This document shows, piece after piece, positions 2,889-20,268 of a DNA stretch of 64,000 bases. This DNA comes from Escherichia phage UPEC03. The notes beneath the pieces were generated by a model. The model was not told where the DNA came from, did not search any database, and was given only the letters and a program-made list of their open reading frames with translations. Numbering within the stretch: position 1 is the first letter of the stretch; the number at the start of each line of letters is the position of its first letter. The stretch lies in sequence record MW250785; one strand, given 5' to 3'. The translations under genes were made by a program, and so were the position numbers.

Positions 2889-3380
2889 ATGAACTTTGAC
2901 CGCATCTACAACATGGATATGGTCAACGGTAAAGGAATCCGTGTAGTGTTGTTTGTCACTGGCTGCAATCATAAATGCGAAGGTTGCTATAACCGTAGTA
3001 CATGGAATCCCCGCAACGGTACACCATACACCGAAGAGACTGAAAACGAGTTGATTAAACTCCTTTCAAATCCCCATGTGGACGGATTGACGCTTACAGG
3101 CGGCGATCCGTTTTACCGCACCAATCATCCAACGCTCTTAAAACTGCTCCAGCGCGTCCGTGCGACGTTCCCTGATAAAGATGTGTGGGTTTGGACGGGT
3201 TACACCCTCGAAGCCTTACAGGGCGATACAGAACGCTCTAAGCTATTACCATTCATTGATGTTCTGATCGATGGACGGTACGAAAAGGATCAACCGACTA
3301 AGAAACCGTTTCGTGGTTCTGATAATCAGCGAATGATTGAGTTCAAAAAGAATTCCATCGAAATTAAAAATATCGCTTGA
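2889..3380 (+). CDS. nrdG: anaerobic ribonucleotide reductase activating protein (radical SAM)
   Basis: 163 aa; VVLFVTGCNHKCEGCYN cysteine motif and near-collinear match to recalled T4 NrdG (MNYDRIY...LTLTGGDP...WTGY...GSDNQR). Confidence 0.85.
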   Translation: MNFDRIYNMDMVNGKGIRVVLFVTGCNHKCEGCYNRSTWNPRNGTPYTEETENELIKLLSNPHVDGLTLTGGDPFYRTNHPTLLKLLQRVRATFPDKDVWVWTGYTLEALQGDTERSKLLPFIDVLIDGRYEKDQPTKKPFRGSDNQRMIEFKKNSIEIKNIA

Positions 3381-7354: not shown

Positions 7355-7362
7355 TATAAATA
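7355..7362 (+). promoter_or_regulatory. T4-type late promoter TATAAATA
   Basis: Exact TATAAATA 32 nt upstream of the gp34 start codon. Confidence 0.7.
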
Positions 7363-15056: not shown

Positions 15057-15064
15057 TATAAATA
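15057..15064 (+). promoter_or_regulatory. T4-type late promoter TATAAATA
   Basis: Exact TATAAATA 26 nt upstream of the second fibre gene. Confidence 0.7.
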
Positions 15065-17329: not shown

Positions 17330-18142
17330 ATGGCTGTTGTAGGCGTACCTGGTTGGATCGGGTCTTCTGCTGTAAGCGAAACGGGTCAAAGATGGATGTC
17401 CGCTGCTGCGGGACAACTTCGATTATCTGCTGCGGGTTATATGTCACGATTTGCGGGGATCTCCCGTGAACAATCAATAACAATTTCCGCGAGTAACGCA
17501 TACGCATGGTCAACCCTGGTCAACCAGATTAAATCATTGGGTGTATCCGGTGGTGCATTCAAAATTACTGTTGTCGGGAACATCGTTTCAAACAGTGCTG
17601 GCGCTCCGTGCCTTAACTTCACATCCGATCTTGCTGGTGTCGATTATATCGAACTGATCATTAACTCCGGTGTAGGTGTTATGGGTCGTGGTGGTGCGGG
17701 TGGTGGTGATAACACAGGTGGCCCGTATTCGTCCGGTGAAAATGGTGGTGTCGGTATTACTAACGCGATCGGAAACAAACTGCGAATAACGAACAATGGT
17801 TATATTGCGGGTGGTGGTGGTGGTGGTGGCCTGGTAAACATGCCAACTTCTACATCACGACGTGTACAGGTATCCGGTGGTGGTGGTCGACCTTTCGGTG
17901 CTGCTGGTACAGGTGGTTATGACGGTAACGGTACAGCGGCAACAATTTCCGCTCCTGGTTCCGGTGGTTCTTCGAGTCTATCACAAGCTGGTGCGGGTGG
18001 TAACTTAGGTGCGGCTGGTCAATATCCACCTAAAGCCGATGGTCGTCTGGAAGCTCAAGCGGCGGGTGCTGCGGGTGCTGCGGTTAACGGTAACGCGCCA
18101 ACGTGGAGAACTGTAGGGACAATTTACGGTTCGAGAGTTTAA
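17330..18142 (+). CDS. 38: T2-type tail fibre adhesin with glycine-rich motifs
   Basis: 270 aa; N-terminus MAVVGVPGWIGSSAV.ETGQRWMS.AAGQLRL matches recalled T2-family gp38; poly-Gly runs (GGGGGGG, GGGGRPFGAAGTGG); C-terminus PTW..VG.IYG.RV. Confidence 0.85.
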   Translation: MAVVGVPGWIGSSAVSETGQRWMSAAAGQLRLSAAGYMSRFAGISREQSITISASNAYAWSTLVNQIKSLGVSGGAFKITVVGNIVSNSAGAPCLNFTSDLAGVDYIELIINSGVGVMGRGGAGGGDNTGGPYSSGENGGVGITNAIGNKLRITNNGYIAGGGGGGGLVNMPTSTSRRVQVSGGGGRPFGAAGTGGYDGNGTAATISAPGSGGSSSLSQAGAGGNLGAAGQYPPKADGRLEAQAAGAAGAAVNGNAPTWRTVGTIYGSRV

Positions 18143-18195
18143 GTAAATTCCTAAATATAATCGGGGGTCGGCATCCCCGAACTTGAGGATTAAAC

Positions 18196-18840
18196 ATGGC
18201 GCTATTACAAGATAAATTGGCGGTGCTTGAACGGGTAATATCGTTCATCATGGCGGTCAAAACATGGAAACAGTTATTCATTAAATTGGTTCTTATCGTC
18301 ACTATTTTCATTATGTTCGTAACATGGTACAAGTGGGATGACTTATTTTCAGTCTGGAAAACATCTTCAATCGTTATAGACGTGCCGACGATGGAGATTG
18401 AAAAGGCAAAAAAGTTTGAATCCGCATCCATCGAACAGTTAAACATAGTGCATTTAACTACGGATGCGGATTTTTCGGCAATCTTTGGTTTCAGACCTAA
18501 GAATGTCAATTATTTTGTTGATATAATTGCGTATGAAGGGAAGTTACCGCAACAGATTAACCCGAAAAATCTGGGTGGCTATCCTATAGACAAGACATCG
18601 GAAGAGTATAATAGACATATAAACGGGCTGTACTATATCTCAGATATTGCAAGCCCGTATCTTCCAACAAAAGACCTTGTTCCGGTAGCATATACCTTTA
18701 GTTGTCCTTATTTCAATCTCGAAAACTACTATTCTGGATCGATTCTAATGGAATGGTATATACAGAAGCCCGAAGTCACCGATACGAAGTTGATGATCGT
18801 GTGCAATCAGGCCGCTAGAATTTTAGGCAGGGTTCGATGA
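18196..18840 (+). CDS. t: holin
   Basis: 214 aa; strong collinear match to recalled T4 holin T (FVDIIAYEGKLP, FSCPYFNLEN, ICNQAARILGR). Confidence 0.9.
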   Translation: MALLQDKLAVLERVISFIMAVKTWKQLFIKLVLIVTIFIMFVTWYKWDDLFSVWKTSSIVIDVPTMEIEKAKKFESASIEQLNIVHLTTDADFSAIFGFRPKNVNYFVDIIAYEGKLPQQINPKNLGGYPIDKTSEEYNRHINGLYYISDIASPYLPTKDLVPVAYTFSCPYFNLENYYSGSILMEWYIQKPEVTDTKLMIVCNQAARILGRVR

Positions 18841-19098
18841 TAATTTCAGTTTCAAACCGCTTAAAGCCCGATCGATGAAATCTTTTACTTTCGTCATCGG
18901 GCTTTTGTCGTATATGTCCCATACGCGCATGAGTTCGTAAGGTGTCGGAACATATTCATCGTTCCAGTATCCAACATTACCTATCGTAACGCGTCGGAAA
19001 CCAGCCTCTACGCTGTGATATACAAAGAACCCAGCCTTACCCACAGGGGAGACTTTAAAACCGCGTGTAGCGGCTTTCATGGCTTCGTCGTGTGTCAT
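18823..19098 (-). CDS. DUF2829-like small protein (possible Tad2-like)
   Basis: 91 aa; N-terminal MTHDEAMKAATRGFKV and C-terminal W/aromatic pattern (YELMRVWDIYD) resemble the DUF2829 signature as I recall it. Confidence 0.45.
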   Translation of the reverse strand: MTHDEAMKAATRGFKVSPVGKAGFFVYHSVEAGFRRVTIGNVGYWNDEYVPTPYELMRVWDIYDKSPMTKVKDFIDRALSGLKLKLSSNPA

Positions 19099-19397
19099 GA
19101 TAGAATCACTTCGCCTCTGTATTGATTGTGATAGATGTATGGACGAACACCCAGTGGGTGATTATCTATGACTAAGATCAGGTCAAGTTCGTCGTGGTTA
19201 TCATCTTCTGCAACTATATCCCAGTCGGTCGCTTTCTGTTCTTCAACACTGGCAATGAATACCTGGTTAATCTCAACCTTACGGTGAGAACGGCGAATGA
19301 TCGTATCCCCTTCGCGGAACACGATCATATCTGGGTTAATCGGGCGGTACGCGGTTTTACCCGCGCACACTTCATTAAGCATTTCTTCGTATGTCAT
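19095..19397 (-). CDS. DUF2829-like small protein (possible Tad2-like)
   Basis: 100 aa; N-terminal MTYEEMLNEVCAGKTAYRP and TDWDIVAED match the recalled DUF2829 pattern (MxFxEALxALKxGKKVxRP ... DWEIV). Confidence 0.5.
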   Translation of the reverse strand: MTYEEMLNEVCAGKTAYRPINPDMIVFREGDTIIRRSHRKVEINQVFIASVEEQKATDWDIVAEDDNHDELDLILVIDNHPLGVRPYIYHNQYRGEVILS

Positions 19398-20194
19398 TAT
19401 AATACCTTTACTCGCTGAACGATTGTTTGTTTAACTTCTTTGTATTCGTTGTGAAGTTTAGGTGTCGCTTTGAAGCGAATCACATCACCCTCTTCAACAA
19501 TTTTGTTTCCGTAGTAGATAACCACGTTACCATCTACGTTGATTTTGGTCATGAAACGTTCCACTTCGGTGTAATAAGAAACTTGGGTATATCCGAGAGA
19601 AATCACTTTCTCAACAACCCCGCTCATTTCCATACGCTTACCGATTTCCCCGATGTGCTGTGCTGCTGCGATCTTCGCCTGGCGCTCTGCTTCCCATTCT
19701 GCGCGGATCTCTTCACGTTTAGCGATGTAATCCTTCTCCAGCGCTACGCCCATGCAGTAAGAGCAAATAGCCTGAAATACTGGGCTATCGTTGCCGTTTT
19801 CTTTGCACTGATCAGCCCACCACAGAATCGTATACATCGGCATATCAGCAATCACTTCACCTTTACGCTTACCGATTGGCATGATGCCCTGTTCCAGCAG
19901 TTCCAGGTTTTCGGTATCCTGTACAGACAGTTTGCCGCGACGTTCAAACAGATCGAAATCTGCGAATCCCTGGAACACCATCTGGAAAGTGTCGGTCTGG
20001 TTCAGACGATCCACCATGCGATCGAAGTATTCACGCGCTTTCGCTTCTGCTTTATCTGGGTCGGTAGACAGGTTGCAGATATAGTTATCAGAAGTGAATC
20101 CACCTCCACGACGCTCTACACGCAGGGTGTACATAGCGTTTTTAGCGCCAGAAGAAATGAAGTATGTCGCGGTAACTTTAGTCAGGTTAGTCAT
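19397..20194 (-). CDS. hypothetical protein (265 aa)
   Basis: Start set at MTNLTKV preceded by AAGGAGA RBS; followed by terminator at about 20237-20268. Confidence 0.6.
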   Translation of the reverse strand: MTNLTKVTATYFISSGAKNAMYTLRVERRGGGFTSDNYICNLSTDPDKAEAKAREYFDRMVDRLNQTDTFQMVFQGFADFDLFERRGKLSVQDTENLELLEQGIMPIGKRKGEVIADMPMYTILWWADQCKENGNDSPVFQAICSYCMGVALEKDYIAKREEIRAEWEAERQAKIAAAQHIGEIGKRMEMSGVVEKVISLGYTQVSYYTEVERFMTKINVDGNVVIYYGNKIVEEGDVIRFKATPKLHNEYKEVKQTIVQRVKVL

Positions 20195-20236
20195 GGTGAA
20201 TCTCCTTAGTGGTTTCGTTTCGACAAGGCCAATATA

Positions 20237-20268
20237 GCAAAAGCCCTCAACCGAAGTCAAGGGCTTTT
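20237..20268 (-). terminator. rho-independent terminator
   Basis: aaagccctcaaccgaagtcaagggcttttt hairpin. Confidence 0.55.

Follow-up and report, generated by a model that had tools for sequence, protein, structure and literature searches.

A tandem pair of small genes beside the holin gene of T4-like phages, putatively derived from the Tad2 anti-defence scaffold

Introduction

Phage sponges are short, abundant, early oligomers with positively charged pockets at their interfaces, and all known ones are homo-oligomers (bioRxiv 10.1101/2025.07.12.664507). In Tad2 an N-terminal helix packs on an antiparallel sheet of five strands, and the ligand pockets of the homotetramer lie where protomers meet. 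The ligands described for the Tad2 scaffold, which offers two interfaces, include 3' cyclic ADP-ribose (3'cADPR), 2'cADPR, His-ADPR, cyclic dinucleotides, cCMP/cUMP, and N7-cADPR (PMC10680739; bioRxiv 10.1101/2025.08.24.671296). Half of the pocket for glycocyclic ADP-ribose (gcADPR) is formed by the W-N-G-K loops of two protomers, the contacts being W25/N26 in SPO1 Tad2 and W21/N22 in HgmTad2, where a W21A/N22A mutant shows markedly reduced binding; in SPO1 Tad2 the alpha2 insertion forms the dimer interface. Here we analyze two adjacent minus-strand genes, p2 and p1, in a 64,000-nucleotide stretch of Escherichia phage UPEC03 (MW250785; hereafter the window), which an earlier note on this DNA had read as a tandem pair of DUF2829-like genes, possibly sponges resembling the Thoeris anti-defence protein Tad2.

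As judged from sequence, the assignment of p2 and p1 to the Tad2-like/DUF2829 fold family appears to be supported, but their assignment as gcADPR sponges does not. The explanation we favor, tentatively, is that the pair constitutes a remodelled sponge of Tad2 descent, in which p2 would be the core, endowed with a basic pocket, and p1 perhaps its partner.

Remote homology of p1 and p2 to Tad2

Both p1 and p2 are real genes. The two open reading frames (ORFs; 91 and 100 amino acids) lie exactly where the earlier note had placed them, and the sequence patterns it had described are there as well: the N-terminal signature M-T-x-[DE]-E-[AM]-x6-G occupies residues 1-13 of both proteins, and W-D-I-[VY] appears as W-D-I-Y at residues 60-63 of p1 and as W-D-I-V at residues 59-62 of p2. 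The proteins match phrog_7751 and phrog_7434, respectively (E about 1e-55), and each has orthologues in about 180 phage records, spread over the same genera in the same proportions (Klebsiella 116, Enterobacter 20, Cronobacter 14, Citrobacter 11, Escherichia 8); measured against diverged relatives, the ratio of nonsynonymous to synonymous substitution (dN/dS) is about 0.1-0.2 for both. In all annotated records inspected the products are called hypothetical, and our literature search found no description of these genes, nor of DUF2829 proteins in T4-like phages. In RB43 the p1 orthologue (RB43ORF284c; positions 3001-3272 of the sequence we call L010) is shortened to 67 amino acids, by sequencing error or as a pseudogene.

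The top Pfam match of p2 is PF11195, the Tad2-like/DUF2829 family, at 15.7 bits (E 0.023, profile positions 1-73), a match that covers the full profile but lies below the gathering cut-off of 25 bits. PF11195 is also the top match for 15 of 19 and for 12 of 18 p2 relatives, and it comes first, again below threshold, for P0161, the most distant p2 relative (17.8 bits), for the p1 homologue of phage Phynn (21.7 bits, E 3e-4), and for that of POP12. Searches of NCBIfam and PADLOC with p1 and p2 gave nothing meaningful.

Comparison of profiles with profiles links both proteins to Tad2. Our reference was an alignment of 74 relatives of SPO1 Tad2 (gp34.65, which itself matches PF11195 at 85.8 bits). 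The p1 family was widened with orthologues from KP15, Phynn, POP12, and metagenomic T4-like contigs, and the p2 family by an exhaustive profile search of 1.84 billion representatives, which returned only 11 clusters, all of p2 type except P0157 and the farthest about 30% identical, and no bridge sequence to canonical Tad2. Aligned by hhalign, the p2 family matches Tad2 with a probability of 86-91% (E 1e-6 to 5e-6; 61-70 columns; Tad2 residues 2-89), and the C-terminal half of p2 matches the C-terminal half of Tad2 with 94% (E 1e-7). The p1 family matches Tad2 with 92-95% (E 4e-8 to 7e-7), an alignment that is reliable over the N-terminal 35-59 residues of p1 only (Tad2 residues 5 to about 65); the C-terminal half of p1, including W-D-I-Y, gives no hhalign signal to the D-W-x-I-V of Tad2. 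Solved Tad2 chains are among the very few Protein Data Bank (PDB) matches of the diversified profiles, 8sme for p2, and 8v3e and 9eib for p1.

P0157 was rejected as a p2 relative despite its E-value of 5e-13: it is a surface protein of 3482 residues with about 20 near-identical repeats of 47 residues, over which weak matches had been summed, a case which illustrates that repeat proteins inflate whole-sequence E-values. A match of p2 to MjaI, a type II restriction enzyme, was also discarded, since it scores well under the threshold and does not recur consistently within the family, as was a match of p1 to the designed helical-repeat protein 8g8i, the sum of individually insignificant stretches, which suggests that p1 residues 50-81 are helical and nothing more.

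Could the likeness to Tad2 reflect chance, or convergence in a common helix-plus-hairpin motif, so that p1 and p2 would be lineage-specific small early proteins of some other fold, perhaps concerned with lysis timing? We regard this as improbable. Consistent with it, every score of a hidden Markov model (HMM) against a sequence is below threshold, p1 is in its C-terminal half more like helical repeats than like Tad2, and fold searches are negative, the AlphaFold2 monomer models of p1 and p2 being poor and finding no match. A shallow p2 alignment had moreover given a different weak match, to the OB (oligonucleotide/oligosaccharide-binding) region of YhaM/Cbf1 (E 0.0033); with a more diverse profile that match vanished and Tad2 chains, including SPO1 Tad2, appeared in its place. 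Against chance stand the controls: i) two independent families reach probabilities of 89-95% with one target; ii) eight neighboring gene families, assembled automatically from the same loci, reach only 0.1-7.4%, whereas the same automatic procedure applied to p1 and p2 gives 95.1% and 88.8%; iii) 100 column shuffles of the Tad2 profile score 11 +/- 2.5, with maxima of 27.6 and 20.1 that lie below the observed 34.7 and 42.4; and iv) reversed profiles gave no match. We conclude that p2 is quite probably a genuine, if very divergent, minimal Tad2-like domain, and, with somewhat less assurance, that p1 is likely to be a derivative of which only the N-terminal half is still recognizably Tad2-like.

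The claim that both proteins belong to the DUF2829 fold family thus stands as remote homology detected between profiles, but not as a significant Pfam match, the check by which the earlier note had proposed to refute it: p2 misses the cut-off, and p1 does not approach it.

Proposed remodelling of the ligand pocket

Eleven residues are invariant in the 74 Tad2 sequences (R22, W25, N26, G27, K28, S76, Q77, D79, L81, D84, and W85), and the loop R-x-G-W-N-G-K is present in every solved Tad2, namely our comparators SPO1 gp34.65 (8SME), ModTad2 (9EIB), HgmTad2/AcrIIA7 (8KBI), and SptTad2 (8WJD). This loop, between beta1 and beta2, is absent from both the p1 and p2 families: the corresponding position reads R-P-I-N-P-D in p2 and V-G-K-A-G in p1, where W-N is deleted in the hhalign alignment. 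Because the ligand-contact loop is missing in both families, the reading of p1 and p2 as canonical Tad2 sponges, which would take up 1''-3' gcADPR and so block type I Thoeris, is not supported, and we consider it very improbable, even though the resemblance holds at the level of the family and p2 retains counterparts of other pocket residues.

Specifically, p2 keeps F47-I-A-S50-V-E-E53-Q-K-A-T-D58-W59-D-I-V, to be compared with the Tad2 motif W-x-x-S-x-x-D-x-L-A-x-D-W-x-I-V (W73, S76, D79, W85), so that the other half of the Tad2 pocket has counterparts in F47 for W73, S50 for S76, and E53 for D79, followed by the D-W-x-I-V strand; F47, E53, D58, and W59 are invariant in the p2 family. The alpha2 insertion is lacking in p2, and its beta3-beta4 stretch is unusually basic (R35 R36 H38 R39 K40, where Tad2 has K-T-A-D-N-K). 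It is because W-N-G-K has been lost while beta3-beta4 is strongly basic that we expect a remodelled pocket in p2, and with a basic pocket in place of W-N-G-K it probably does not bind gcADPR in the manner of canonical Tad2. A match by eye between Y49-V-P-x-P-Y-[ED]-x-M-x-x-W60-x-I-Y of p1 and the C-terminal motif of Tad2 has no statistical support.

Organization and conservation of the p2-p1 module

In every lineage inspected (Pseudotevenvirus, Slopekvirus KP15, Phynn, POP12, and the metagenomic T4-like contigs L014, L017, L018, and L020), a p1-like gene directly follows a p2-like gene. The p2 stop and p1 start share an ATGA overlap (Table 1), by which the two genes are translationally coupled; the same 4-nucleotide (nt) overlap is found in KP15, Phynn, L014, L018, and L020, the overlap is 13 nt in POP12, and the genes abut in L017. 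Upstream of p2 lies a gene for a protein of 265 amino acids, whose stop overlaps the p2 start as TAATG. This gene is part of the unit in KP15, Phynn, and POP12 and is absent upstream of p2 in L014, L018, and L020; its product has a weak match to QSregVF_b (20.2 bits against a cut-off of 22). The ORF had been listed with 287 codons from TTG 20260, but the true start is almost certainly ATG 20194, preceded by the Shine-Dalgarno sequence AAGGAG, since that TTG belongs to the -35 box of a promoter.

The promoter is embedded in a hairpin. Right after the stop of the preceding gene comes a terminator-like structure with a 9-bp stem, a TTCG loop, and a T-run (GCCCTTGAC-TTCG-GTTGAGGGC-TTTT), and TTGACT inside its stem is followed, after 18 nt, by an extended -10 element TG-n-TATATT, and then by AAGGAG and ATG 20194, an arrangement of sigma-70 type. 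POP12, L014, L018, and L020 likewise have, upstream of the module, a related hairpin that contains TTGAC, and the Phynn copy is partly captured (sites in relatives: L013:1601, L014:3943, L018:10, L020 about 265, and L012 about 1350); the stem is kept among lineages, while the loop varies between TTCG, TTAG, GAAA, and GAGA. In L014, L018, and L020, the lineages without the 265-residue gene, the hairpin lies directly upstream of the p2-like gene; what stays constant in the unit is therefore p2-p1. We propose that this pair is the invariant core of a small transcription unit, expressed early from the conserved promoter. The unit is found in one T4-like branch comprising Pseudotevenvirus, Slopekvirus, Phynn, POP12, and metagenomic relatives.

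No T4-type late-promoter core occurs near the module. Exact cores of this kind (TATAAATA) are found only twice in the 64 kb, no more often than expected by chance, at 7355-7362 and 15057-15064, both on the plus strand in the tail-fibre region.

The earlier note had placed the pair just downstream of the holin gene t. The adjacency is correct but the orientation differs, since p1 and t are convergent and overlap at their 3' ends. The p1-like gene is convergent with t wherever a contig extends that far, and the 18-nt overlap is identical in Phynn, POP12, L014, L018, and L020, with none in KP15; dual coding in the overlap may explain the invariant KLKLSSNPA end of p1. So striking a conservation could be taken to favor a role in lysis timing, the remaining part of the chance reading considered above, but p1 and p2 run toward t from a transcription unit of their own, whose promoter is of early type, and adjacency to t is thus uninformative with respect to lysis. 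Only one terminator-like hairpin is found on the minus strand downstream of p1, at 18161-18180, beyond the 5' end of t, and early transcripts of the module would therefore cross the whole holin gene in antisense.

Anatomy, charge, and selection

The two families have opposite charge throughout: isoelectric points (pI) are 8.6-9.9 for p1 (12 of 12 basic) and 4.2-5.9 for p2 (19 of 19 acidic), 31 sequences in total. In both predicted models a helix at residues 3-11 is followed by strands. The N-terminal half of p1 (residues 1 to about 59) consists of helix and strands and is remotely Tad2-like, and its C-terminal third is predicted to be a basic helix. In the p2 core omega is 0.04-0.07, a sign of very strong purifying selection, and the nonsynonymous divergence (dN) of the tail exceeds that of the core about ten-fold (0.46-0.58 versus 0.04-0.08); the tail, with a charge of -5.9, also carries insertions and deletions between close relatives.

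A tail of this kind invites another reading, namely that the Tad2-like scaffold has been turned into a binder of host proteins (a defence effector or sensor, RNA polymerase, a nuclease, or a nucleoid protein), in which case p1 and p2 would be positional and functional analogues of AsiA and Arn, small early proteins with which T4 takes over its host, and the p2 tail a target surface or nucleic-acid mimic. We think this rather unlikely, though clearly less so than chance resemblance or canonical gcADPR binding. In its favor, the canonical small-molecule pocket residues W-N-G-K are gone; fast evolution and strong acidity are what one would see in an arms-race interface or a DNA mimic; the promoter context is of early type; and the slot next to t is the one occupied in T4 by asiA and arn. 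The anti-Thoeris proteins Tad3-Tad8 likewise act by binding proteins (PMC13243611). Against it, the most constrained part of p2 is the core rather than the tail, the experimentally characterized Tad2-fold proteins in the papers cited here are all sponges, and neither p1 nor p2 has detectable sequence similarity to AsiA or Arn in Pfam and PDB sequence searches, or to any solved protein-binding inhibitor.

The opposite charges bear also on the partnership of p1 and p2. Coupling, strict co-occurrence, and opposite charge lead us to infer that p1 may be a partner subunit of p2. A more specific version, in which the two would form an obligate acidic/basic hetero-oligomer of Tad2-derived subunits, with asymmetric, strongly basic pockets that sequester an immune signal outside the canonical Tad2 range, is compatible with the same strict co-occurrence and conserved coupling and with opposite charge in 31 of 31 members; in this full form we give it only a small probability.

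The locus

The window belongs to Pseudotevenvirus (Straboviridae); its segment 18000-21000 is 99.1% identical to Enterobacter phage EC-F2. Along the minus strand the order is p1, p2, the 265-residue gene, several small genes (one of them DUF7230), ndd, one ORF, and rIIB. That no asiA, arn, or motA is recognizable here, as had been remarked before, agrees with our searches, in which no tested ORF in 18823-22293 matches an AsiA, Arn, or MotA model. Coordinates of the features are collected in Table 1.

Table 1. Features of the p2-p1 locus, numbered from the first nucleotide of the window (aa, amino acids).
Feature	Positions	Strand	Description
gp38 adhesin	17330..18142	+	precedes holin t
holin t	18196..18840	+	PF11031, 187.7 bits; context, convergent late gene outside the p2-p1 module
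p1/holin t 3'-3' overlap	18823..18840	convergent	18 nt; p1 ends in SSNPA-stop, t in LGRVR-stop
p1	18823..19098	-	ORF; 91 aa, pI 9.3; phrog_7751
ATGA overlap	19095..19098	-	p2 stop/p1 start; reads 19098-19095
p2	19095..19397	-	ORF; 100 aa, pI 4.7; phrog_7434
p2 tail, residues 63-100	19098..19211	-	acidic, then hydrophobic/aromatic; fast-evolving
p2 core, residues 1-62	19212..19397	-	putative minimal Tad2-like domain without beta2-beta3 insertion, from alignments
265-aa gene	19397..20194	-	heads the transcription unit in this lineage; phrog_3628; stop overlaps p2 start
composite hairpin/promoter	20231..20264	-	hairpin 20264-20239; -35 TTGACT 20260-20255; TG-n-TATATT 20239-20231

Discussion

Under the explanation we favor, a remodelled sponge of Tad2 descent, p2 would be a very divergent, minimal but full Tad2 domain, composed of an N-terminal helix and a beta-sheet and extended by an acidic tail that evolves fast, and p1, also very divergent, would retain the helix and first strands of the N-terminus but end in a basic helical segment. 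The p2 pocket would have been remodelled, a basic beta3-beta4 stretch combining with F47/S50/E53 in place of W73/S76/D79; acidic p2 and basic p1 may act together; and the pair would function as an abundant early oligomer that sequesters a small nucleotide-derived immune signal of the host, sequestration being what the Tad2 scaffold does in each case tested to date.

Several observations weigh against this explanation, and we wish to set them out together: i) the lead, although credible, is one of remote homology in which key functional residues are missing, the R-x-G-W-N-G-K loop foremost; ii) p1 has no Pfam match; iii) an HMM built from the alignment of SPO1-like Tad2s does not set p1 or p2 apart from the background of the 425 ORFs of the window, so that their detection needs the sensitivity of profile-profile comparison; iv) direct similarity between p1 and p2 is not significant or at most marginal (BLASTP E=1.3; hhalign E=0.008-0.04, with a score of 17-19 where shuffles give 10.5 +/- 2.4 and a maximum of 22.6); and v) the count of promoters across the whole region is not above chance, so that "early" rests on position and on the conservation of one promoter site. 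As a consequence of the fourth point, the claim that p1 and p2 are a tandem pair of one family holds insofar as each is separately linked to Tad2, and not by virtue of any significant similarity of one to the other.

An anti-defence role for the p2-p1 pair is nonetheless plausible on the sequence comparisons assembled here, and the pair is a credible and testable lead in a clinically relevant group: the carriers are about 180 T4-like phages of Klebsiella, Enterobacter, Cronobacter, Citrobacter, and Escherichia, many of them candidates for phage therapy. Were p2-p1 an anti-defence module, the Tad2 scaffold would extend into the Straboviridae and would be seen to function in the absence of the ligand loop that is its signature, possibly as a heteromer encoded by two genes, and the pair would offer a tangible factor by which host range is set where defences depend on signalling. 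Were the hetero-oligomer real, it would be without precedent among phage sponges in being heteromeric, and among Tad2-type sponges in lacking the W-N-G-K loop. And if p2-p1 is not a sponge at all, it is still a strongly conserved, putatively early pair in the AsiA/Arn slot of T4, and as such a good candidate for a function in host takeover.

Comparison with known systems

With the genes of T4, the likeness is one of position: like asiA and arn, p1 and p2 occupy a slot convergent with holin t, on the early strand, and are of similar size. Arn is a small acidic protein, as is p2, and AsiA is all-helical. No T4-type Tequatrovirus record appears among the matches listed by tblastn for p1 and p2. 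Tad1, Acb2, Acb4, Sequestin, Lockin, and T4 TadIV-1 (vs.3) are likewise small early phage proteins whose mode of action, sequestration, resembles the one proposed here, but none is related in sequence to p1 or p2; TadIV-1 forms a helical dimer, and its gene lies elsewhere in T4 (PMC13243611).

The closest comparison is with Tad2 itself. Tad2, p1, and p2 are all phage-encoded proteins of about 90-100 residues found in an early-gene context, they are similar at the level of profiles, and they share a helix-strand start of the form M-x-F-x-E-A-l-x-x-l-K-x-G-x-k-V; p2 further shares the beta3-beta4 region and the C-terminal [FW]-x-A-S-x-x-[ED]-x-x-A-x-D-W-x-I-V. Unlike Tad2, p1 and p2 are sub-threshold in Pfam and lack both R-x-G-W-N-G-K and the alpha2 insertion; p2 has an extra acidic and variable tail, and in p1 a basic helical C-terminus replaces the C-terminal half of Tad2. 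Known Tad2s are moreover single genes whose products form homotetramers, whereas p1 and p2 are an obligatorily adjacent acidic/basic pair. Since they fall below the Pfam threshold and are without the W-N-G-K loop, we do not file p1 and p2 as members of the Tad2 family. We would rather describe p2-p1 as a probable variant of the Tad2 kind: loop-less, insertion-less, and tailed, and organized as an acidic/basic tandem pair.

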